Positions 10,736 to 64,000 are shown, numbered from the stretch's first letter. The stretch: DNA of 64,000 bases from a virus (IMGVR_UViG_3300032313_001465:84582-148581); one strand, 5' to 3'. Notes: a model not told the origin generated them from the letters alone. Made by a program: numbers and translations.

Positions 10736-11271
10736 TGATAAAACTTTTAGACCTCTTACGCGAAGAAAAACTAAATATTCTTAAACCTAGACGTTCCCCG
10801 GAAGAACGCCAATCTAACTTTCTTATTATAACCAATAAGAAAATTGAACAGTACATGAAGGATGGAGGCAAAGGTGATCTTGATTTAGCTAATACTAAAA
10901 TTACCTCACTACCAAATGGTCTAAAGGTTGGCGGTTTTCTGGATTTAAGAAATTCTTCCATCACTACATTACCAAATGGTTTAACGGTTGGAGATTATCT
11001 TTATTTAAGAGATACTAAAATTACATCATTACCCAATGATTTAACGGTTGGGGGTGAACTTGATTTAGCTAATATTAAAATTACTTCATTACCAAATGAT
11101 CTAACGGTTAGGGGTGATCTTAATTTAAGAGATACTAAAATTACATCATTACCAAATGGTCTAACAGTTGGAGGTAATCTTGATTTAGAAAATACTCCAA
11201 TAAGTAAAAAACATTCCGAAGAAGAAATTAAAAAAATGGTTCCGGGAGTAAAAGGCAATATTTATATATAA
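10735..11271 (+). CDS. Leucine-rich-repeat-like protein (20-aa repeats) with MIKL leader
   Basis: Repeats of LDLxNTKITSLPNxLxVGG; paralog at 21079. Confidence 0.75.
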   Translation: MIKLLDLLREEKLNILKPRRSPEERQSNFLIITNKKIEQYMKDGGKGDLDLANTKITSLPNGLKVGGFLDLRNSSITTLPNGLTVGDYLYLRDTKITSLPNDLTVGGELDLANIKITSLPNDLTVRGDLNLRDTKITSLPNGLTVGGNLDLENTPISKKHSEEEIKKMVPGVKGNIYI

Positions 11272-11282
11272 ACATAAAACAA

Positions 11283-11606
11283 ATGAAAAAATCAGAATTA
11301 AGACAAATTATTAAAGAGGAAATTAGTAAGGTGTTGAGTGAGATACAAACACCAATAGCTAATAAAACAGACAAATTTTTATTATATAGAAAGCCATCAT
11401 CTTCCCCTAGTCCGGGTCATGGTGCATATCTATTTTCATCTGGAAATACCCTAGATGAGTTATTTGATAATTGGATATTAACTATGCAATCCGGAGGATA
11501 TGGGTATAAAGGTCAATATTTAGATAATGAGCGCAAACGATTTGATATTGAACAAGAAAAATATTGGTCATCTCCTAGTTCATTTTACACACTCAAAATA
11601 AAATAA
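11283..11606 (+). CDS. Hypothetical protein with MKKSELRQIIKEE leader
   Basis: ORF with shared leader. Confidence 0.6.
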   Translation: MKKSELRQIIKEEISKVLSEIQTPIANKTDKFLLYRKPSSSPSPGHGAYLFSSGNTLDELFDNWILTMQSGGYGYKGQYLDNERKRFDIEQEKYWSSPSSFYTLKIK

Positions 11607-11611
11607 ATATA

Positions 11612-12004
11612 ATGAAAAAATCAGAATTAAGACAACTTATTAAAGAAGAAGTTGAATCTATAGTAAATGAGACACGTACTAAAGATTTTGAAGTAAAAGA
11701 TGAAATTGGTAAATTTTTTGTAGTTACATCCCCATATAAAGATAGTACTAAAGAAGATATATTATTTGATTCTGATGTTTTTCATTTTGCAAATCAAGTT
11801 AAAGAAGGACTATCATTACATGATGTTATAGGATTATACAAAAACAAATCAGATGCCAATAGAATAGCAACTGAAGCCTTAAAAGAACGTGATACCCATT
11901 TAGATGAATTAAAATCATCAATGGAAGAATTCAGAAACCATAAAAAAGAAACAGAAGATAAAAAATCAAAAGCTAAGGAATTAATTCAAAAATTAAAAAA
12001 ATAA
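11612..12004 (+). CDS. Hypothetical protein with MKKSELRQLIKEE leader
   Basis: ORF with shared leader; C-terminal coiled coil. Confidence 0.6.
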   Translation: MKKSELRQLIKEEVESIVNETRTKDFEVKDEIGKFFVVTSPYKDSTKEDILFDSDVFHFANQVKEGLSLHDVIGLYKNKSDANRIATEALKERDTHLDELKSSMEEFRNHKKETEDKKSKAKELIQKLKK

Positions 12005-23878: not shown

Positions 23879-24141
23879 TGAAACCATATACTGACGTTTT
23901 AACAACGGAAAATACAATTATTAGGGAGTTTGGTGATAACATAGACCCCGTTGAATTAAAATGGCATATGGACTCTTCTTCCCGCCACGTTACCATTTTA
24001 GAGGGTAAAGGATGGAAATATCAAGAAGATAATAAATTACCTTTGGAACTTAACGAAGGGGATTGTATATTTATACCAAAACAAACATTTCACCGTATTT
24101 ATAAAGGAACAACCCCATTAAAAATAAAAATTAAACAATGA
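23878..24141 (+). CDS. Cupin-fold protein
   Basis: WHMD...LEGKGW...GDCIFIPKQTFHRI. Confidence 0.65.
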   Translation: MKPYTDVLTTENTIIREFGDNIDPVELKWHMDSSSRHVTILEGKGWKYQEDNKLPLELNEGDCIFIPKQTFHRIYKGTTPLKIKIKQ

Positions 24142-24428
24142 AAAAACCAGAATTAAAGCAAATTATTAAAGAAGAAATACAAAAGATATTAAGTGAACAG
24201 CAAAAACGTATGCAAAAGCTTGCAGGTATTAACGAAGATAACACATTTAGTGACAATTACACAGTTAGTAATGAACAATATAAATTGATGGATAGTTATG
24301 TAAATCAACGTGCACTCCGTGATTTTCTAAATGCCGCTGAAAACATGATGGAAGATTTTCATGAAGCAGGATTTCCGGCAAGAGATGCATTTTATTGGTT
24401 TTATACTAAGCTAACTGCAAATATTTAG
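24138..24428 (+). CDS. Hypothetical protein with a double leader (MKKPELKQIIKEE + RMQKLAGINE)
   Basis: Both leader types in tandem. Confidence 0.6.
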   Translation: MKKPELKQIIKEEIQKILSEQQKRMQKLAGINEDNTFSDNYTVSNEQYKLMDSYVNQRALRDFLNAAENMMEDFHEAGFPARDAFYWFYTKLTANI

Positions 24429-24463: not shown

Positions 24464-24745
24464 ATGGCAAAATTAAACAAACAATTCCGACGTATGCAAA
24501 AGCTTGCAGGAATTCTTAACGAAAACGAGGAAATAGATAATTTTATTGATGTATTAACAGATATGGCTATTAAAGCTAACATCATTAAAGACAAAGATAT
24601 AAATAAAGACGAAGTAATAGATGCATTATATGATACATGGGAAGATATGGGATTTGATGATTATGAAGAAACAGGACAGGGGATTAGTACATCAGATTAT
24701 AATAGATCTTTAGAAATATTTACCAATTATATTAAAGATAAATAA
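24464..24745 (+). CDS. Acidic hypothetical protein with RMQKLAGILNE leader
   Basis: Leader shared with 62528 and 63493. Confidence 0.6.
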   Translation: MAKLNKQFRRMQKLAGILNENEEIDNFIDVLTDMAIKANIIKDKDINKDEVIDALYDTWEDMGFDDYEETGQGISTSDYNRSLEIFTNYIKDK

Positions 24746-27116: not shown

Positions 27117-28016
27117 ATGAAGAAATCTGATCTTAAAAAACATATTAAAGAAGAAATACTTTCGATCCTAAAAGAAGCATCAACAGCATTAGTAACTACT
27201 AAAGGAGGAACAAAACCTGTATCATTCTCATCCCCTTCAGAATTAAGCGCTCTTAAAACGGATGCTAACGTATCATCAATCACAACAACAGCAGGGCAAA
27301 AGATTAAAGAAACTAAAAAAGAAATGAAAGAAGATAAATTCGATGATAAAATAACAAATCTTGAAAAATATACTTATACTGTAAATGGGAAAAAAGTAAC
27401 TCCGGAAATTGGTTATTTTGATCATTCATTAAAAGCTATGATATCCACTCCAAGAAGTGGTGATGAGTATTTTGATTATGAATTTTATAGAATTGGCGAA
27501 CCTGATGAAAGTGGTAATATTGAATTATCTCCTGAAAAAGGTAAAAAAGGAATGTATACTGAAGAAATGGATACTTCAGGATTTAAATCTGGTAGAGAAT
27601 TTATTAATATAAAATTACAAAAATATCCTAAAGCTGTAGCTAAAATTAATCAATTAATTAATATGATTGGTGAAGATAAATTCACAATGGAAATGGCTAA
27701 ATGGTTGTTTGATTTCTTTAATAATGCTTCATACGAAAGTCCAGTTAACGAAGCAAAAATTGAATCTGATTTTTTTGAACGAGAACCTAAATCTAAAGAT
27801 ATTGAGAAAGGAGAAGGCATAATAGCTAAAACTACAAAGCTTTTAAAATTTCAAAAAGAATTAAAAACATTATCTAAAGATATGCAAGATTTAGCTGCTG
27901 AATATAGAGAAGCTGAAGGATCTGATAAAGATGAAATTTTACGAACATTAAAAGTTAAAACTGCTGCTAAAAAGGAATTAGAGAAAAAAATAGAACAACT
28001 TGAAAGATATGTATAG
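27117..28016 (+). CDS. Modular hypothetical protein with MKKSDLKKHIKEE leader
   Basis: Leader; internal LKE/IKE/MKE/VNE sites; coiled-coil tail. Confidence 0.55.
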   Translation: MKKSDLKKHIKEEILSILKEASTALVTTKGGTKPVSFSSPSELSALKTDANVSSITTTAGQKIKETKKEMKEDKFDDKITNLEKYTYTVNGKKVTPEIGYFDHSLKAMISTPRSGDEYFDYEFYRIGEPDESGNIELSPEKGKKGMYTEEMDTSGFKSGREFINIKLQKYPKAVAKINQLINMIGEDKFTMEMAKWLFDFFNNASYESPVNEAKIESDFFEREPKSKDIEKGEGIIAKTTKLLKFQKELKTLSKDMQDLAAEYREAEGSDKDEILRTLKVKTAAKKELEKKIEQLERYV

Positions 28017-33993: not shown

Positions 33994-35205
33994 ATGAAAA
34001 CATTACAAACACAATATAATCTTATTAAAGAAGGAAAAGGAAGTAAACATGTATTTTTAAAGGAAGCAAAAAGCTTATATCCTGACATGATTACTAATTT
34101 TTCAACTTTTGAACAAACTGAAAAAATTCTTAAAAATAGAGGAGTAATTAACGAAAATTTTGTTGGATTACAACCTATTAACGATTGGGAACCATCTCCA
34201 AAACAAGACTATGAAATAGCATTTAAAAAATTCTTATCTGAAGTAGAAGAAGAAAAAGTTAAAGCTGATACTAAAAAAGTGTCTAAATATGTAGAAGATA
34301 CTGATGCTCATAGTTTTGATAATAAAGATCGTAAAAATATTGATAATTTAAGTGGTCAAGAAGTACTTAATGGGTTTTATACCGAATTAAAAGCGCCTAA
34401 AAACGCAGATAAAACGAAAGACGAATTAATGGATATCGTTACTAAAAATCTATCAAAAGATCCGTTATACTACATTAAAAACGGCCAATTTGGAACTGAA
34501 GGAGTGGGATATACTGAAGACGCTCCAGGTTTAGGTAAGCCTAAAGAAGCAAAAGGTAAATATAAATCAAGTGGATATGGCGATTTAGATAATAAACAAA
34601 CAGCTCCAAAATCAAACGTTAAGGATTCAGGAAAAAGTGAATACAAAACTGGTATGCCTAAGAAAGTAAAAGAAATGGATATGAAAGCTCAATCTTCTAA
34701 AGGTGTACAAAAAATGGCTACTCCTGGTAAACCAAAAACTATAAAACTAAATGAAATAGGAATGTTTCATGATCCTATGGGATATAATAAAGGAGCAAAA
34801 TCTCAAAAGGAAGTAGCTCGTGATATATTAATGAATGCTGGATTGTCTGATGAAGAAATAAAAAAGTTCATTAGTGATAATATGTTTAAAAAAGGAAGAT
34901 TAGATGATTTAGCTAAAGAATATATTAAATCCCTTAAAGGACTAAATGAAAATCAAGAATCAAATACAGATGTATTAAAAGATTTAATATCAAGACATGA
35001 TTGGTACTTTGAAATGAGTGATGATAATAGAAAATATAAAGATGGTCAAGCATCTGAAAAGAAAATTATGGATTTAGTAAATAGAATGGGAGATGAAGGC
35101 AAAAAAATCTATAATTCAATGGCACCAAAAGATAGACAATTAAAAGAATCCGTAGTTGATAGAATAATAGAATCTATTCTTGAAAGACTTAAGAAAATTA
35201 AATAA
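33994..35205 (+). CDS. Putative prohead core/internal protein
   Basis: Multiple LxE sites (IKE, INE, LSE, LNE x2, LKE); immediately upstream of the protease. Confidence 0.5.
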   Translation: MKTLQTQYNLIKEGKGSKHVFLKEAKSLYPDMITNFSTFEQTEKILKNRGVINENFVGLQPINDWEPSPKQDYEIAFKKFLSEVEEEKVKADTKKVSKYVEDTDAHSFDNKDRKNIDNLSGQEVLNGFYTELKAPKNADKTKDELMDIVTKNLSKDPLYYIKNGQFGTEGVGYTEDAPGLGKPKEAKGKYKSSGYGDLDNKQTAPKSNVKDSGKSEYKTGMPKKVKEMDMKAQSSKGVQKMATPGKPKTIKLNEIGMFHDPMGYNKGAKSQKEVARDILMNAGLSDEEIKKFISDNMFKKGRLDDLAKEYIKSLKGLNENQESNTDVLKDLISRHDWYFEMSDDNRKYKDGQASEKKIMDLVNRMGDEGKKIYNSMAPKDRQLKESVVDRIIESILERLKKIK

Positions 35206-35206
35206 A

Positions 35207-35827
35207 ATGAGTAAACAACTTCTAATAGAAACTAGACCATTCCAAGTTAATCCAATGCAACTTGTTGAAGGAACCAAAGGATCTTCAGGAAATCCATTAG
35301 TAGAAGGTATTTTAGCTACAGTAGAAGTAAAAAATGGAAATGGAAGATACTACAAGAGAGAGTTATGGGAAAGGGAATTAGAAACATACATGCAAAGTAT
35401 TAAAGAAAATCGTGCAACTGGAGAATTAGATCACCCCAGCACTGAAGTTATTAACTTAAAAAATGTATCTCATGCTATCAAAGATATTTGGTGGGATGGG
35501 GACAACATAATGGGTAAAATCGAAATTCTACCTACCCCATCAGGTAATATCCTAAAAGCACTTATAGAAAGCAATATCTCAGTAGGAGTATCTTCAAGAG
35601 GAATGGGTACTTTAAAACAAGAAGGCGATTTAATGGAAGTACAAGATGATTTTACATTAACATGTTGGGATTTTGTATCTACTCCTTCTAATCCAGGTAG
35701 CTGGATGCATCCAATAAATGGAATGATGAACGAAGGTTTACAATCAATTAAAACAAATAAGTATTCTAAAGTAAATTCTATTCTTTTTGAAATATTATGC
35801 GCTCACGGCACTTGCCCAATAATTTAA
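35207..35827 (+). CDS. Prohead protease (T4 gp21-like)
   Basis: NGNGRYY, GELDHP, VGVSSRGMG, WDFVSTPS. Start reassigned to MSKQLLIE. Confidence 0.93.
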   Translation: MSKQLLIETRPFQVNPMQLVEGTKGSSGNPLVEGILATVEVKNGNGRYYKRELWERELETYMQSIKENRATGELDHPSTEVINLKNVSHAIKDIWWDGDNIMGKIEILPTPSGNILKALIESNISVGVSSRGMGTLKQEGDLMEVQDDFTLTCWDFVSTPSNPGSWMHPINGMMNEGLQSIKTNKYSKVNSILFEILCAHGTCPII

Positions 35828-36028: not shown

Positions 36029-37096
36029 ATGTCAACAAACAGAGATTTATTAAAAGAAGCGATCGCTGACGCTAAAGCAGTAAAAGATACAGCAATTGCA
36101 AACGCAAAAATGGCTCTTGAAGAAGCATTTACTCCACATTTAAAATCTATGTTCTCCGCTAAAATCAACGAGATGGAAGAGGAAGATATGGATGAAGATA
36201 TGGATTACAATGACGAAAACATAGAGCAAAACGAAGCCAAAAAAAGAGGTGGAAAAAATGAAAAGGTTGTTAAAGAATTCTATTTAGAAGAAGACGAAAT
36301 CAATCTAGAAGAACTTATGTCTGAATTAGAAAAAGATGAAATGGAAGAAGTAATTAATGATCCTAGAGGTCCTAGAGCTCACGGTAATATAGCTTCTGGA
36401 GGAATGTCAGATGATGCTTTAATGGAAGCCGAAGAAGAAACTGAGGAAGAAATGAGTATTGAAGACATGTCTGAAGAAGATTTAAAAGATTTCATTGAAA
36501 GTGTAATTAAAGACATGGTTGAAGCTGGAGAAATTGAAGCTGGTTCTGAAGAAGAAGAAGAAGAAGAAGAAGAAGGTGAAAGTATTGATGAGTTCTTAAA
36601 CGAAATGGAAGGTGATGACCTTAAAGAATATGGTCAAGAACAACCTATATCAGTTGAAGACGCTTTATCAATTGTATGTAAATCATATCCAAACAATGCA
36701 TTATGTAAAGGAATGAAAGAAGGCAAAGGTGCAAAAGAAAAATCAAACAAAGAATTAGAAGAAGCATACAGAGTTATTAGATCAATGAAAAAAGACATTA
36801 ACGAAGTTAACTTACTAAACGCAAAATTACTTTACACCAATAAAATCTTCAGAGGTAAGAGCTTAACTGAATCTCAAAAGATTAATGTATTAGGTGCTTT
36901 TGACAGAGCAACAACCGCTAAAGAAGCTAAACTGGTATATGAATCATTGTTGAGTAATTTAAAAACACCAACAAGAAACATTCAAGAAAATTTAGGTAGA
37001 GCTTCCAAGTCAGTAACTGTTCCTCAAACAAAACAACCTATTATTGAATCAAATGATATGGTAGCAAGGTTCCAAAAATTAGCAGGTATTATTTAA
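36029..37096 (+). CDS. Prohead scaffold/core protein (gp22-like)
   Basis: Very acidic coiled coil between protease and capsid genes; EVNLLNAKLLY; C-terminal RFQKLAGII. Confidence 0.8.
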   Translation: MSTNRDLLKEAIADAKAVKDTAIANAKMALEEAFTPHLKSMFSAKINEMEEEDMDEDMDYNDENIEQNEAKKRGGKNEKVVKEFYLEEDEINLEELMSELEKDEMEEVINDPRGPRAHGNIASGGMSDDALMEAEEETEEEMSIEDMSEEDLKDFIESVIKDMVEAGEIEAGSEEEEEEEEEGESIDEFLNEMEGDDLKEYGQEQPISVEDALSIVCKSYPNNALCKGMKEGKGAKEKSNKELEEAYRVIRSMKKDINEVNLLNAKLLYTNKIFRGKSLTESQKINVLGAFDRATTAKEAKLVYESLLSNLKTPTRNIQENLGRASKSVTVPQTKQPIIESNDMVARFQKLAGII

Positions 37097-38888: not shown

Positions 38889-40388
38889 ATGAAAAAACAA
38901 TATAATTCAAAAATTATACAATATTCAATATCTGGGGATGTTATAAATATATTTAATTCACCACATGATGCTGTACATATTGTTAATTATGATTCTATAA
39001 TTAGTTGTTGCAAGGGAAAATATAAAACAGCAGGTGGATTTATATGGGAATTTGAAGATAATAAAATTCCAAATATATCTAAGGACGGAGACATACAATG
39101 TAAAATATGCAAATCCAAAGAATCAGTACGTTCTATGGCTATGCATTTAAGGTGGGTACATAACATAAAAACAAATGAATATGTAAAGGAGTTTGGAGAA
39201 TTTAGACCTAAAGAACTAAAATCAAATACAAAAAAACAAGAATCTGGGTTTGAATGTAAGGAATGTGGTGAAAAATTAAAAAGTAATCAAAATTTAATGT
39301 ATCATATTACAAAGTCTCACCCTGAAATAACTAAACATGACTATATAATTAAACATTTATATAAGGAAATCCATCCAACTTGTAAATGTGGATGTGGGGA
39401 GGAGGTAACAATATTAGAAAACGGTAAAAATTGTGATTTAGGTAAAGAAACGTATTCTAGAGACTATATAAAAGGACACTGGGATTGGGAAGTATTTTCA
39501 AACATAGGGAAACAATCTAAAGAAGAAATAAAATTAGTAGATTTCATAAAAACAATATATTCAGGTGAAATCCAAACCAGTGTTAGGGGGATAATCCCTA
39601 AATCAGAAATAGATATATATTTACCTGAATTAAATATTGGAATTGAATATAATGGATTATATTGGCACTCTGAAAAAGGAGGGAGATTTAAAGAATATCA
39701 TTTAGAAAAATTAAAAAAAGCTAATGAAGTAAATATTAGATTAATACAAATATTTTCAGATGAGTGGTTAAATAAAAATGAGATTACTAAAAATAAACTA
39801 ATATCAATCATTCAGCCTAAATCAAATAGAGTATATGCTCGAAAGTGTAATATAAAAGAAATATCATCAACTGATAAAAATATTTTTTTAAATAAATATC
39901 ATATTCAAGGTGAAGATAGAAGTACATATAAGTTAGGAATTTTTAATTTAGATGAATTGATAGGAGTTATGACTTTTTCCAAACCTAGAATATCATTAGG
40001 AGGTAATATAAAATTAGAAGATACTTATGAATTATCAAGGTACGCCTCTTCAACATATATTGTTGGTGGAGCTGCTAAATTAATAAAATATTTTAAAAAA
40101 CTCATCAACCCAAAATTAATATATTCATATTCAGATAATAGATGGACTAATCCTAACAATAATATGTACCTGAAATTAGGGTTTAAACATGTTAAAACTT
40201 CCTCCCCTAATTATTTTTATACAAAAAATTATCTAACACGAATTCATAGATATAATTTTAATAAATTTAATCTTAAAAAAATGGGAGCAGATGTACAAAA
40301 TCATACTGAGTTTCAAATTATGGAAGGATTGGGATATACTAAAATATGGGACTGTGGTTCTTCTAGGTATGAGTTAAAATTTAGTTAA
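38889..40388 (+). CDS. Homing-endonuclease-like protein (NUMOD1 + C2H2 fingers + Hef/Vsr-like nuclease)
   Basis: TAGGFIW; CKIC...HLRWVH; EIDIYLPELNIGIEYNGLYWH; YARKC; IWDCG. Confidence 0.7.
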   Translation: MKKQYNSKIIQYSISGDVINIFNSPHDAVHIVNYDSIISCCKGKYKTAGGFIWEFEDNKIPNISKDGDIQCKICKSKESVRSMAMHLRWVHNIKTNEYVKEFGEFRPKELKSNTKKQESGFECKECGEKLKSNQNLMYHITKSHPEITKHDYIIKHLYKEIHPTCKCGCGEEVTILENGKNCDLGKETYSRDYIKGHWDWEVFSNIGKQSKEEIKLVDFIKTIYSGEIQTSVRGIIPKSEIDIYLPELNIGIEYNGLYWHSEKGGRFKEYHLEKLKKANEVNIRLIQIFSDEWLNKNEITKNKLISIIQPKSNRVYARKCNIKEISSTDKNIFLNKYHIQGEDRSTYKLGIFNLDELIGVMTFSKPRISLGGNIKLEDTYELSRYASSTYIVGGAAKLIKYFKKLINPKLIYSYSDNRWTNPNNNMYLKLGFKHVKTSSPNYFYTKNYLTRIHRYNFNKFNLKKMGADVQNHTEFQIMEGLGYTKIWDCGSSRYELKFS

Positions 40389-59033: not shown

Positions 59034-61097
59034 ATGTCAACAGATATTAATTTTCTATTTTTTACAGATAACGTAAATAAATATCAAGTAAATCAGCATG
59101 ATCAAAAAACATATAAAAATGGAATATTTTATATTCGACTGGGGCACTTATTAGATTGGATACAAGATAATATAATTCCAACTATTAGAGATAAAAATGG
59201 ATCAACATCAAATGGGAAAGTTATAAAAATAAATACAGATACAAAAACGAATATTATTCATTTAGAACAAAGACAAATAATTACGGATCCTAGAATTTGT
59301 GTTTTTAAAACTACTATAGTTAACCCACTGTTTGGTTTAAATATTGATAGTTTTTTAAGTACTTCTCAAACCCCAATAAATCCACTAAACATTGCATCAA
59401 CCTTATCAACTACATACAATAATACTTTAATACAAGCTGCATCTAAACAAGAATTTTCGTCACCTATATGTTCTGACTTTGAAGAAGGAGAATTTTTAGA
59501 AAATAATAATCGTTATCTTTATTTAATGAATACCTACTTTAGTATGAGTTGGATTTTAAATAAAATGAATTCAATAGTAGATAGTGAAGGGAATATAATA
59601 TTACTTGATTTTTTACAATCATTGTGTGATGGATTTGCTGAGGCTACTTGCTATTATAATAAGTTAACTCCAACGATAAATGAAAATAATGAAATAATTT
59701 TTATAGATGAAATAGGCCTTCCTGATAGAGATAACATTTTAAAAAAACCAGATTTCGTTGATAAAGCAGTTCAAACCGTTGGAGATGGCCCAGAATTAGC
59801 TAAATTCAATATGTTTGGATATAAAGAAAGTGGAGGACAGGCTAGTTTTATTAGAGATTTCTCATTCAAAACAGAAATCCCAGCAAGTTTTGCAACTATG
59901 ATAACAGTAGGAGCCCAAGCTCGTGGGTTAGTTGTTGGAGAAGATGCTACATGTTTATCTAAAATGAATTATGGTTTAACAGATAGAATGAAGCCGGAAA
60001 TAATAGACGCAGACATAGACTTAACTGTTAGTGAAAATCAACAATTAATTAATAACTTCTTTGAAAAAACTTTTCCAATTATTTCTGTGGTTTTTGATTT
60101 TTTAAATAAAACATACAAACAAAGAGAATTAGACCCTGAACTAATAGATAGTATGAAGAATATAGGAAAAGATTTAGTAAAATTAAATGCAACCATATCT
60201 TCTATTAATCAAGCAATACAATTAGCCTTAGTAATGACAGCAGGTAAATCGCTCCCTAAATCATCCCCAGGAAGCGGTTTTATTCCATTTAACCTTCAAT
60301 TAACAATGGATGGACTCTCAGGATTTAAAATTTATCAAAAATACACCTCAGAACAAGAATTTCTTCCAACAAATTATCCTGAAAGTTTAGATTTTATTAT
60401 TAAAGGAATAACACATAACATAGAAAATAACCAATGGACTACGATAATAGAATCTTTTGGAATGCCTAGAAATCCTGAAGGAAGTGGGCATATTAAGGCA
60501 TCTGAAGCCGCAATTCAATTAGCTAAAAATATAGTTATCTTAGCCCCAGCAGCTGCTTCAAACCCAAATCTAACAGCATATGACTCAAATAATACTCCAC
60601 GATTAAGAAAAGCCGTTTTAGACCAGTCTTCATTTGTATATAATAAATTTGGTGAAAATACAGGAAATTGTGGAAAATATACATATAGTATAGCAAAATA
60701 TTTAAAAAAATACTTAGATAATAATAGTAATAAAGCAATCCCAGTAGATACCATTGGTGGAAGTGGTGGAAATACAAACCTAGATTCATTTCGAGCAGGA
60801 ATTATTGCTTTAGGCATTTATGATCAAGTTTATCTAGGAAGTTTCACAGCCTCTACTTTAAAAGCCGGATACTTTGGTACATTAAAATGGAATTATGGAG
60901 ATATATTAAATTATTATTCTCCTGGTAATTCACCTGGTCATAACATGCATGCTCAAATATATACTGGAGATATATGGTCCTCTACAAAATGGTCAACAGA
61001 TCGAAAAAATAACTATGGATCTAGTTTTATATACAAATCAGATAATAAAGTATTTAATGTATATGCGTTTAAAGTTAAAAAACAATATTTAGTATAA
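59034..61097 (+). CDS. Baseplate hub-like protein, C-terminal part, with a putative CHAP/NlpC-type peptidoglycan hydrolase
   Basis: IPFNLQLTMDGLSG...ITHNI...WTT; C-terminal GNCGKY...GDIL...HAQIY...W. Confidence 0.55.
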   Translation: MSTDINFLFFTDNVNKYQVNQHDQKTYKNGIFYIRLGHLLDWIQDNIIPTIRDKNGSTSNGKVIKINTDTKTNIIHLEQRQIITDPRICVFKTTIVNPLFGLNIDSFLSTSQTPINPLNIASTLSTTYNNTLIQAASKQEFSSPICSDFEEGEFLENNNRYLYLMNTYFSMSWILNKMNSIVDSEGNIILLDFLQSLCDGFAEATCYYNKLTPTINENNEIIFIDEIGLPDRDNILKKPDFVDKAVQTVGDGPELAKFNMFGYKESGGQASFIRDFSFKTEIPASFATMITVGAQARGLVVGEDATCLSKMNYGLTDRMKPEIIDADIDLTVSENQQLINNFFEKTFPIISVVFDFLNKTYKQRELDPELIDSMKNIGKDLVKLNATISSINQAIQLALVMTAGKSLPKSSPGSGFIPFNLQLTMDGLSGFKIYQKYTSEQEFLPTNYPESLDFIIKGITHNIENNQWTTIIESFGMPRNPEGSGHIKASEAAIQLAKNIVILAPAAASNPNLTAYDSNNTPRLRKAVLDQSSFVYNKFGENTGNCGKYTYSIAKYLKKYLDNNSNKAIPVDTIGGSGGNTNLDSFRAGIIALGIYDQVYLGSFTASTLKAGYFGTLKWNYGDILNYYSPGNSPGHNMHAQIYTGDIWSSTKWSTDRKNNYGSSFIYKSDNKVFNVYAFKVKKQYLV

Positions 61098-61098
61098 A

Positions 61099-61725
61099 AT
61101 GCCATATTATCCACTCTCTCAAATAAAAACCAATTTATATACTAATGGGCAAGAATTTACTTTTACCCCATATACTCCAAGTAATTCATATGTCGGATCG
61201 TATTGGAGTACATCTGATGGGAAATTTTTTACAGGTAAAACCCCCCAAGATCTTCCAAATAATGAGATATTTAAAATACCAAATGGTGATCCTACAATAC
61301 CTCAACCATTCTCACAAATTACTTTAGATATAATTTCATCAGTTGAAAGTCAACCTAGTCTTGAAACATATGTAGTGACTAAAAAAATAGATCCTAATTT
61401 TTCAATTTCCGTCCCTTCTCAAAACATAACACTTCCAACAACCCAAGACTATCAAGTAGGTGAATTTAGAAGATATTTTTGTAAAAAAACAAACGAGTTA
61501 ATATATATAGAAATTGATAAATCTACTTACGATAAATTAGTAAGTAAAAATCCACAAATTATATGGCAGTTATATACTCCCATTAATTTAGCATGGCAAA
61601 TATCGGGAAATAAAGAAAAAGTAGCTATAACTAATAAAAACATAGTATCATTAGCTATGCAGAGACAAAAATTATATCAATTTGATGAATATTTAAAATT
61701 TGATTATACAAAATATTTTCAATAA
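61099..61725 (+). CDS. Hypothetical tail-module protein
   Basis: LYTNGQEF, YVGSYW, DYQVGEFRRYF. Confidence 0.5.
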   Translation: MPYYPLSQIKTNLYTNGQEFTFTPYTPSNSYVGSYWSTSDGKFFTGKTPQDLPNNEIFKIPNGDPTIPQPFSQITLDIISSVESQPSLETYVVTKKIDPNFSISVPSQNITLPTTQDYQVGEFRRYFCKKTNELIYIEIDKSTYDKLVSKNPQIIWQLYTPINLAWQISGNKEKVAITNKNIVSLAMQRQKLYQFDEYLKFDYTKYFQ

Positions 61726-61726
61726 T

Positions 61727-61759
61727 TTGGTACTTTAACCCCCCTTTAATATATTTATA
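61727..61759 (+). promoter_or_regulatory. Overlapping TTG-N20-TATATT and ATATTTATA promoter motifs
   Basis: TTG at 61727, TATATT at 61750, ATATTTATA at 61751. Confidence 0.5.
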
Positions 61760-61776
61760 TAAAACAAACAAAAACA

Positions 61777-62205
61777 ATGAAAGTAACAGAATTTAGAAAA
61801 CTAATCCGAGAAGAAATAAGTAAGGTGTTGAAAGAAGAGAAACTTCCTGAAGACACAAAATACGATATTGATGATTTAATTGATAATGTTATTATAACCA
61901 CACTTATTGAAGATATGGGATTAACCCCTATAGGTCTGACTCAAGCTATTCATTATTTGATTCAAAAATTACAAATAAAGTATCAACAAATAAAAGGTGA
62001 AAATAGTTTAGCTGAAAATAGTATTAATACTTATTACAAAGACTTAATAATCCAACAAATTAATAAACGATTGTTTAAAATATTTGATAGAGGTGGAATG
62101 GTAGAATCTGAATACCAAGATCTTCAAAATTATCTTAAAATGTTAGATGATAAAAACAACAAACAATCAAAAACAAACAAAAACAATGAAAACAACAGAA
62201 TTTAG
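61777..62205 (+). CDS. Cassette gene with MKVTEFRKLIREE leader
   Basis: Shared leader. Confidence 0.6.
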   Translation: MKVTEFRKLIREEISKVLKEEKLPEDTKYDIDDLIDNVIITTLIEDMGLTPIGLTQAIHYLIQKLQIKYQQIKGENSLAENSINTYYKDLIIQQINKRLFKIFDRGGMVESEYQDLQNYLKMLDDKNNKQSKTNKNNENNRI

Positions 62206-62491
62206 AAAACTAATCCGAGAAGAAGTTCGTAAAGTAGTTAAAGAAAATGAATTTAATGATTTAAATTCAATAGTTCAAAAACTTAAACCAAGATGGGGTG
62301 ATGTATCTATAAAAGATAATAAAATACGGTTGAGAACTTATTATAAGAACGGTAATCTAAAAAATTGGTATACTATTGAAAAAATAGGTGATGATATGTA
62401 TCGTTTTGGTAGAGGAGGAAAACAATTAAGAGATTGGTCTTTAGATGATTTAATGTTTAATCTTGTATATAACAAAAATATTAGTTTATAA
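62186..62491 (+). CDS. Cassette gene with MKTTEFRKLIREE leader
   Basis: Start reassigned from 62147. Confidence 0.6.
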   Translation: MKTTEFRKLIREEVRKVVKENEFNDLNSIVQKLKPRWGDVSIKDNKIRLRTYYKNGNLKNWYTIEKIGDDMYRFGRGGKQLRDWSLDDLMFNLVYNKNISL

Positions 62492-62527
62492 AAACAACAA
62501 ACAATCAAAAACAAAAACAAAAACAAA

Positions 62528-62926
62528 ATGAAAAAACAAATACTAAGCGAACAATTTCGACGTATGCAAAAATTAGCAGGAATTATTAATGAAGGTCAAG
62601 AAAAATATCCAAAAGGTTTTACTCCATATACACCCACCAAAGAAGACGATGAAAATTATGATGGAAAAGTATTAGCTGCCTATACAGCACCTATGGATGG
62701 GTGGGATGAAAATAATTCGGATACTGTAGTAGTTATGAAAGATGAGGAGGGCTTTTGGGTAGATGGATATCTTAGCTTTGGTGATTTTGAAGACGAGGAA
62801 GGTACAGGACCATTCAAAACCCAAAAAGAAGCCGAAGATAAGGCTTATGAAATAATGGAAGACATTGTAGATAATTGGGAAGATGAGGATTATGATGATG
62901 AAGATGATGACGACGATGATTATTAA
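62528..62926 (+). CDS. Acidic cassette gene with QFRRMQKLAGIINE leader
   Basis: First 66 bp identical to 63493; poly-Asp tail. Confidence 0.65.
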   Translation: MKKQILSEQFRRMQKLAGIINEGQEKYPKGFTPYTPTKEDDENYDGKVLAAYTAPMDGWDENNSDTVVVMKDEEGFWVDGYLSFGDFEDEEGTGPFKTQKEAEDKAYEIMEDIVDNWEDEDYDDEDDDDDDY

Positions 62927-62970
62927 TTAAAAATAAACAATGAAAGCAACAGAATTTAGAAAACTAATCC
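62894..62970 (+). repeat. 77-bp direct repeat (second copy 63799-63875)
   Basis: Spans the poly-Asp tail, spacer and the next leader. Confidence 0.9.
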
Positions 62971-63461
62971 GTGAAGAAGTTAGAAAAATATTAACTGAAG
63001 CAAAATCCGAAAATTATCCTTTTATGTCAACTCCAGAGCAAGAAAAATTATATGATAGACTTGCTACAGACTTAGAAAAATTTATAAATAATATAGCTAC
63101 AAAATTAGAAATTAATCCTTCAAATATTAGAATGATATGTAGTGGATTAGGGGATAAAGGAGAATATAGAAATAAAGGATTAGTAGTTCAAATTAAAGCT
63201 AATGATAGTAAATGGAAAGGGATACATGGTAATAATCTTATTATACAAACTATAAATGACGAAGGTGTATTAATAGATACAAAAGAGGTTGAAATAAAAG
63301 GATCTAAAAATAAAGAATTAAGAGATATTTGGAATAAAGCAATAGATCTAGAAATGGACGATTATGTGTCACAGTTTAATACAAAATTAGCAAGTTCACT
63401 TACCCCAGAAGAAGCAAAATTAATACATCAATATACTCCAGTAATAATAACTGGTAAATAA
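62940..63461 (+). CDS. Cassette gene with MKATEFRKLIREE leader
   Basis: Shared leader. Confidence 0.6.
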   Translation: MKATEFRKLIREEVRKILTEAKSENYPFMSTPEQEKLYDRLATDLEKFINNIATKLEINPSNIRMICSGLGDKGEYRNKGLVVQIKANDSKWKGIHGNNLIIQTINDEGVLIDTKEVEIKGSKNKELRDIWNKAIDLEMDDYVSQFNTKLASSLTPEEAKLIHQYTPVIITGK

Positions 63462-63492
63462 TCAAAAACAATCAAAAACAATCAAAAACAAA

Positions 63493-63831
63493 ATGAAAAA
63501 ACAAATACTAAGCGAACAATTTCGACGTATGCAAAAATTAGCAGGAATTATTAATGAAAGCGAATTTAAAGTGGGGGATACAATAAAAATACCATTTACT
63601 TTATCTACAGGTGATGAAAGTGAAGGAGAAATTTTAGCAATTTCTACATATTTATCTAACAAAAAAGCAATTGATAAGGCTATTAGAGACAGTGGATGGG
63701 AAGGTGGAGAAAAAGAAGAATTAACTTGGTACAAAATAAAAACTCCAGATGGGATCGAATGGATAGATAGTGAGGAATTATCGGTAATGGGTGATGAAGA
63801 TGATGAAGATGATGACGACGATGATTATTAA
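63493..63831 (+). CDS. Acidic cassette gene with QFRRMQKLAGIINE leader
   Basis: Leader and tail identical to 62528; different middle (FKVGDTIK, SH3/KOW-like). Confidence 0.65.
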   Translation: MKKQILSEQFRRMQKLAGIINESEFKVGDTIKIPFTLSTGDESEGEILAISTYLSNKKAIDKAIRDSGWEGGEKEELTWYKIKTPDGIEWIDSEELSVMGDEDDEDDDDDDY

Positions 63832-63844
63832 TTAAAAATAAACA

Positions 63845-64000
63845 ATGAAAGCAACAGAATTTAGAAAACTAATCCAAGAAGAAGTTCGTAAAGTATTAAA
63901 CGAGGCTATGTCTTGGGACAAAAACACAATTAACAAATTTTTTGCATATTTGAAACGTCAGCACGGTATGAAAGCAGTCCCTGAATTTAAAACAGATACC
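63845..64000 (+). CDS. Cassette gene with MKATEFRKLIQEE leader, 3'-truncated
   Basis: Manual translation MKATEFRKLIQEEVRKVLNEAMSWDK..., open to the window end. Confidence 0.6.
   Translation, partial: MKATEFRKLIQEEVRKVLNEAMSWDKNTINKFFAYLKRQHGMKAVPEFKTDT

Follow-up and report, generated by a model that had tools for sequence, protein, structure and literature searches.

In T-even phages, the otherwise unrelated small proteins IPI, IPII, IPIII and Alt have in common a short N-terminal peptide with L/I-x-E at its end, and these phages encode a gp21-family protease; their two ip loci are hypervariable in close relatives, and conserved flanking DNA is thought to guide their exchange (PMC3012670, PMC9026906, PMC8442874, PMC2839356, PMC12373910). 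T4 gp21 cleaves after L/I-X-E, removing the internal proteins' 10-residue capsid-targeting sequence (PMC9026906), which reads MKTYQEFIAE (PMC8442874), and in T4, the GmrSD restriction enzyme that is blocked differs among Ip1, Ip2 and Ip3 (PMC12373910). Here, we analyzed a viral stretch of 64,000 nucleotides (IMGVR_UViG_3300032313_001465:84582-148581; the window), in which an array of small genes carrying either of two N-terminal leaders, B and C, resembles the ip loci in its shared N-terminal peptides with L/I-x-E ends, in the encoded gp21-family protease, and in its variability. A preliminary description of the window had likened this array to the variable T-even IPI locus, and the analogy proved apt (PMC3012670, PMC2839356). 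We think it fairly probable that the seven genes of the array form a late operon encoding an expanded T-even-type internal-protein system, in which tagged bodies are exchanged by crossovers in shared DNA.

The array also departs from its T-even counterparts. Its leaders are 20 to 22 residues long rather than 10, two leader types alternate in one operon, and leader C copies the C-terminal peptide of the scaffold. About a dozen or more tagged genes are present per genome, compared to three or four in T4. The crossover sites are leader codons, spacers, and an acidic-tail segment instead of promoter or stem-loop elements. The host group is Bacteroidota-type, and the system described here is known from sequence alone.

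Giant phages (phiKZ, 201phi2-1, and SPN3US) likewise have many head-internal proteins cut after glutamate by a gp21-related protease (PMC9026906, PMC5694885). However, their propeptides are long and do not form a uniform, portable tag, and giant-phage ejection or inner-body proteins are not known to be encoded in tandem cassette arrays with shared leader DNA. In PeSL cassettes, repeated conserved DNA between ORFan genes is a site of homologous recombination (Arbiol et al. 2010, PMC2839356; PMC4122927), and, as at the present locus, genes are inserted, deleted or replaced in hyperplastic regions at module borders. PeSLs consist of an early promoter plus a GC-rich stem-loop in non-coding DNA, a definition that excludes the cassettes described here: a promoter-like motif is found only before the first gene, plus-strand hairpins are absent between genes, and much of the repeated DNA is coding. 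Our literature searches turned up the T-even precedent, and neither these leaders nor such arrays were described in what they returned.

Array positions below refer to the window, which makes up the final 64 kb of a viral contig of 148,581 bp (G000:C1:84582-148581); positions in that contig carry the prefix "genome". The features of the array are as follows.

61777..62205, plus strand: B1, 142 amino acids (aa), leader B
62186..62491, plus strand: B2, 101 aa, leader B, basic payload with an isoelectric point of 9.6
62528..62926, plus strand: C1, 132 aa, leader C; payload of net charge -31, with an aspartate/glutamate (D/E) run and Y at its end
62940..63461, plus strand: B3, 173 aa, leader B; payload family found with leader C in other phages
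63493..63831, plus strand: C2, 112 aa, leader C; unique payload, acidic tail the same as in C1
63845..64000, then genome 124-330, plus strand: B4, leader B, 120 aa in total
genome 387-791: B5, the seventh gene, leader B
62518..62593, plus strand: repeat 1, copy a, the end of a spacer plus 22 codons of leader C; 76 bp identical to copy b
63483..63558, plus strand: repeat 1, copy b
62888..63001, plus strand: repeat 2, copy a, covering an acidic tail with its stop, the 13-nt spacer, and leader B; exact core 62894-62970
63793..63906, plus strand: repeat 2, copy b; exact core 63799-63875

The ends of the contig share a direct terminal repeat of 123 bp, which indicates a circular assembly, so that the window edge is the contig end and the array continues from genome position 1. 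Past this repeat, B4 is completed; in an independent contig (L146) it is uninterrupted and 97% identical, so that the circular join is sound. The order B-B-C-B-C-B and the run of the array past the window edge, both in the preliminary description, are correct, with B5 added from the genome start (B B C B C B B). Downstream of B5 lie 183 bp of non-coding DNA and then the replication module, and the array ends with B5. The 66-bp identity reported earlier (62528-62593 and 63493-63558) extends to the 76 bp of repeat 1, which itself sits in a longer repeat (62509-62593 versus 63474-63558; 96% identity). The repeat 2 cores are identical over 77 bp, as first noted, and the longer copies are 91% identical; this pair brackets a 905-bp block absent from L146. 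Spacers of the AAAAAC/AACAATC type, initially thought to be general, precede B2, C1, C2, and B5, but both C-to-B spacers are a different 13-nt unit, TTAAAAATAAACA. The B1 frame has no stop ahead of its spacer, which is translated (..KNNKQSKTNKNNENNRI), and the frame stops within the B2 leader. The last 47 nt of B1 (62137-62183) are 89% identical to the B2 end and spacer (62475-62521), and this run-through end looks like a recombination scar.

Leader B (consensus MKxTEFRKLIREEVRKVLKE) stands at the start of five genes of the array and of at least seven elsewhere in the genome, and h-h-x-E at residue 20 closes it in all 12. Array copies share 78 to 90% nucleotide identity, with a 21-nt core invariant except for one G/A position, while copies elsewhere in the genome are only 57 to 75% identical to them. 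When a leader-B profile was run against 1.84 billion cluster representatives (E <= 0.001), at least 1,684 were matched. Among the best 150 matches, the leader stood at residue 1 in 145 and h-h-x-E ended exactly at residue 20 in 138; the 125 longer bodies in this set fell into 89 similarity groups. By eye, leader B loosely resembles the T4 tag (MK.T.EF..LI.E), peptides too short for statistics, and leader C is unlike that tag. We also asked whether leader B mimics a motif inside the scaffold (..DLKDLIRDI..), but rejected this idea as unsupported because the profile scored scaffold homologs no better than shuffled ones.

Leader C (consensus MKKQILSEQFRRMQKLAGIINE) heads C1, C2, and the gene at 24464, and follows leader B in the gene at 24138. 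In all four of these genes it ends in an L/I-x-E-type protease motif. The h-x-E ends of both leaders are a motif, and a cut there is predicted. Two genes of the head module are listed here.

35180..35827, plus strand: prohead protease of the T4 gp21 family (Pfam Peptidase_S77 PF03420, 102 bits against a cut-off of 27; phrog_207, 1.8e-58)
36029..37096, plus strand: scaffold-position gene, 355 aa, acidic, between the protease gene and the major capsid gene

The scaffold-position protein ends in ..RFQKLAGII, which is the core of leader C; its assignment as the scaffold rests on gene position and composition, together with an N-terminal resemblance to T4 gp22. A degenerate DNA scan of IMG/VR for RMQKLAGI returned at least 120 loci. 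In at least 94 of these, the peptide formed the very C terminus of acidic, scaffold-like proteins of 300 to 450 residues, which are homologs of gene 36029-37096. In at least 26, it was an N-terminal leader on small proteins (53 to 357 residues), and h-x-E followed in 26 of the 26 such leaders listed, compared to a background of 15% per 10-residue window. The same pairing is seen in Flavobacterium phage vB_FspM_immuto, the nearest cultured relative (capsid identity 59%), whose scaffold homolog ends in ..RWQKLAGIIK and which has two leader-C genes, gp083 and gp230.

Other observations concern the ends of these proteins. The immuto scaffold homolog (NC_055915.1, 125626-126867; L209:25626-26867) is annotated as a "DNA polymerase phi-like protein", a label that is probably a low-complexity artefact, since the gene sits between the prohead protease and major capsid genes. 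T4 scaffold gp22 (L235:8118-8927) starts MLKEQLIAEA.., resembling the T4 tag, so the classical tag may also derive from a scaffold terminus. Three other contigs (L020, L022, and L079) encode proteins of 220 to 290 residues with a leader-B-like N terminus (MELRKYIREMVE.., ..QLRQLIRESI..) and a C-terminal RMQKLAGII(K), so that both tags sit on a single protein, one per end.

We next compared the locus among relatives. Relatives of the 208-aa gene just upstream of the array (61099-61725) were present in at least 80 viral contigs. Near relatives have the array in the same position, with the content listed here.

Own genome, after the 208-aa gene: B1 B2 C1 B3 C2 B4 B5
L146, after the 208-aa gene: Bx Cx B2 C1 B4
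L129, after the 208-aa gene: Bx' B2 C1
L130, after the 208-aa gene: Bx'
L220, after the 208-aa gene: C1 B3 Bx' C1'
L221, after the 208-aa gene: ..C1 B3 By Bz Bw B5

Although the flanking DNA of the five relatives is 90 to 99% identical to that of our genome, the site holds six different arrangements; the flanking genes of L146, L129, and L130 have protein identities of 64 to 100%. The array is thus not invariant, and the payload swapping between conserved flanks proposed in the preliminary description is supported: near-identical relatives differ in cassette sets and orders, with breakpoints in leader, spacer or tail repeats. Some cassettes recur among the relatives. B2 has counterparts in L146 (93% identity) and L129 (79% identity), and C1 is found in L146, L129, and L220. 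The segment 62995-63792 (the B3 body, spacer, leader C, and C2 body), absent from L146, lies between the copies of a ~105-nt direct repeat (62888-62994 and 63793-63903), an arrangement that is the expected mark of unequal homologous crossover as read from the sequence. The limits of the homology blocks fall at the final leader codons (61843, 62593, 62994, and 63558), at a spacer or ATG (63491/63499), or at the acidic tail (63793). Distant relatives, with 208-aa proteins of no more than 50% identity, have no array at the site; the array is thus a hyperplastic region where the tail and replication modules meet. Cassette exchange is supported by this comparison, and the recombination pathway itself is a putative one.

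The B3 body provides a case of re-tagging. In our phage and P0004 (93% identity) it is preceded by leader B, and the copies in L134 and P0005 to P0009 (55 to 59% identity) are preceded by leader C, with similarity across the family starting directly after ..LTE|A, ..ITE|G or ..INE|G. This finding of a single body under either leader, with the joint at the predicted cut site, provides the strongest in silico sign that the leader may be a separable address. In P0006, a second module fused to a B3-type body closes with ..LVRNSY, as does a leader-C gene in L133 and L134; cassettes can therefore also fuse into two-module proteins.

The bodies themselves are dissimilar. Among the 13 mature payloads of the genome, the best pairwise blastp match had an E value of 0.2, the C1 family and C2 aligned with a probability of 0.3% in hhalign, and blastn of the coding middles between the repeats gave only chance 7- to 9-mers, in keeping with the earlier statement that these middles are unrelated. 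Pfam, PHROGs, and NCBIfam searches of all payloads gave only sub-threshold matches, to leucine-rich repeats (LRR) for B5 and to SH3-like domains for C2. An AlphaFold2 model of B3 (predicted local distance difference test [pLDDT] score of 72) has a helical leader joined by a loose linker to an alpha/beta domain. This model had no fold match in the PDB by Foldseek (best E = 0.22), and a wide VIA-align search reached a best Z of 4.7, which is background level. The C1 model (pLDDT 55, low confidence) shows a beta-sheet and one long helix; C2 has weak SH3/Tudor-like hints, with only low-score leads from the ESM Atlas. B5 is LRR-like and has longer relatives elsewhere in L129, L130, and L146, while the B1 payload has no relative among the compared loci. 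No payload matched a known anti-defense protein or a known fold. In net charge, C1 (-31) and C2 (-19) are strongly negative, B2 is basic, and the remaining bodies are near neutral. The D/E runs of C1 and C2 end in an aromatic residue (..DDDDDDY; 62888-62926 and 63793-63831). Acidic C-terminal tails are known in single-strand-binding proteins, which the C1 and C2 tails recall. As a general third module, however, the acidic tail was rejected: elsewhere, one is present in just 2 of 129 leader-B proteins and in none of 26 leader-C proteins.

A tandem arrangement and a common N terminus could also arise if the genes were diverged paralogs of one family in which the N terminus is merely the best conserved part, the reading that the preliminary description had named as its own refutation. 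We looked for such kinship and consider it very improbable. In addition to the lack of pairwise similarity given above, predicted secondary structures differ (alpha/beta across 150 residues in B3, beta-sheet plus long helix in C1, LRR-like in B5), DNA identity drops from 100% to noise at a sharp boundary, and the same body is found with two different leaders.

Expression signals place the array with the virion genes. Upstream of B1 lies the following element.

61751..61759, plus strand: late-type promoter-like motif ATATTTATA, 26 nt ahead of the first array gene

Genome-wide, ATATTTATA occurs 26 times on the plus strand and 5 times on the minus strand, and 21 of the 26 plus-strand copies lie no more than 45 nt upstream of a start codon, compared to 1.6 expected. 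It precedes the tail sheath gene (47280), the head-tail adaptor gene (43802), and other virion genes, as well as other leader-tagged genes (11258 and 21066); within the array it stands only ahead of the first gene. From this distribution we infer that ATATTTATA may act as a late promoter. A second motif, TTCGTATATTGATGTATAAT, has 18 copies upstream of the window (G000:C1:41828-69545), where it marks small genes, mostly ~30 to 40 nt ahead of their starts. It is probably the early promoter of the phage and, much as PeSL elements do, may serve as a further type of repeated site for recombination. The array has no copy of TTCGTATATTGATGTATAAT. A 9-bp hairpin followed by a U-run lies 3' of B5 (z = -4.0); no terminator-like hairpins were found on the plus strand inside 61000-64000, and an Rfam search of 60000-64000 had no match. 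With the promoter-like motif first, the hairpin last, and TTCGTATATTGATGTATAAT absent, the seven genes look like one operon coregulated with the virion genes. Shine-Dalgarno-like sites precede only 8 of 205 genes, and the 20 nt upstream of start codons are 56% A, so that the aaaaac/aacaatc spacers are an extreme form of the normal start regions of this genome.

These observations can be joined in a working model. The two N-terminal tags are probably clip-off capsid-loading signals. The basic leader of 20 to 22 residues would dock its protein into the assembling prohead, leader C by presenting the peptide that ends the phage's own scaffold protein. The gp21-type protease would then cut after the terminal h-x-E, and the freed body would remain in the head and enter the host with the DNA. 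Near-identical leader codons, A-rich start regions without Shine-Dalgarno sites, and the acidic-tail segment would serve as homologous crossover sites, at which cassettes could be added, deleted, reordered, and re-tagged. We infer packaging of the tagged proteins on four grounds: the leaders end in h-x-E, an S77 protease is encoded, leader C is identical to the scaffold tail, and the promoter-like motif ahead of the array is of late type. By T4 precedent, the bodies may act in host take-over or anti-defense.

Against this model stand the following points. The bodies are mostly acidic or neutral (C1 net -31), whereas the internal proteins of T4 are basic. The scaffold-position protein matched no library model, its BLASTP match to T4 gp22 was not significant (E = 0.56), and its tail gave no clear signal of co-variation with leader C across five related phages. 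Leader B had no significant match to any part of the scaffold. Literature searches found no virion proteome, mapped N terminus or binding assay for the phage or immuto, and no other assembly holds the B3-to-C2 and C2-to-B4 junctions. The payload charges, the sequence-based grounds for packaging, and the lack of a detectable scaffold counterpart for leader B would also suit leaders that are real modules but serve as cytoplasmic factor-binding helices, in oligomerization or in regulated turnover, with payloads acting in the producing cell. We regard this as unlikely, since leader C is the scaffold's own terminal peptide, both leaders are closed by a fixed h-x-E that is the motif of the encoded S77 protease, and the array has the upstream motif of virion genes and not that of early genes. 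In addition, leaders swap on one payload exactly at h-x-E, as would be expected of a removable address more than of a functional part of the protein.

The two unmatched junctions, along with the absence of relatives of C2 and B1 from the compared loci, raise the question of whether the array order is partly an assembly chimera, with exact repeats of 66 to 77 bp letting the assembler join cassettes of different strains. Of 80 related contigs, 18 end no more than 1 kb downstream of the 208-aa gene and 3 start no more than 1 kb upstream of it, which fits repeats or strain mixtures breaking assemblies. Yet independent contigs from other samples share the junctions of the 208-aa gene with a B leader, of B2 with C1, and of C1 with a B leader, and the junctions C1-B3, B4-419-aa gene, and B5-419-aa gene also occur in independent contigs. 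Every contig alone holds several tagged cassettes in a row, and our contig closes on itself through B4, which is intact in L146. A chimera is accordingly quite unlikely, and an expanded internal-protein system remains the reading that we prefer.

Tagged genes are also found outside the array.

11283-11606 and 11612-12004, plus strand: leader-B gene pair, with the promoter-like motif at 11258
24138-24428, plus strand: tagged gene with leaders B and then C in tandem
24464-24745, plus strand: leader-C gene
27117..28016, plus strand: gene of 299 aa, headed by a variant of leader B and located immediately upstream of the terminase genes

A tblastn search of cultured phages with the B+C-tagged protein (24138-24428) had no match. 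The genome has T4-like head and tail genes, including those for a large terminase, portal, Peptidase_S77 protease, gp23-like capsid protein, and tail sheath, and it keeps the T4 gene order of portal, protease, scaffold-position gene, and gp23-like capsid gene. The phage is an uncultured water phage, a distant T4-like (Immutovirus-like) myophage, and its host is probably Flavobacteriia-type. Between the capsid gene and phoH lies a 499-aa gene (38889-40388) that matches PHROG families labeled homing/HNH endonuclease (phrog_3339, 6.9e-90). A QueC homolog (99 bits) is encoded at G000:C1:12564-13208, and no Pfam match to TGT/DpdA was found. The relative immuto makes 7-deazaguanine DNA (bioRxiv 10.1101/2023.04.13.536721). 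Modified DNA would open the phage to type IV restriction, which is the target of the T4 internal proteins.

Taken more broadly, and tentatively, it is possible that scaffold-terminus peptides are portable head-loading addresses whose DNA is also the crossover site, giving an integrase-free cassette system for the fast-changing injected proteins of a very large group of aquatic T4-like phages. That leader C copies the scaffold tail suggests how such tags arise and what they bind. If this is true, the cassette set would comprise no fewer than 1,684 protein clusters counting leader B alone, with new inhibitors of host defenses possibly among them, and the T4 theme, in which diverse injected proteins bear a removable capsid address, would apply well beyond T-even coliphages and on a much larger scale. 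A simple rule for candidate injected proteins would follow, namely, a leader ending in h-x-E at residue 20 to 22 and an S77 protease in the genome, and would yield a large catalogue of small proteins for testing against bacterial defense systems. Cultured immuto, with the same tags on gp083 and gp230, makes the idea directly testable.

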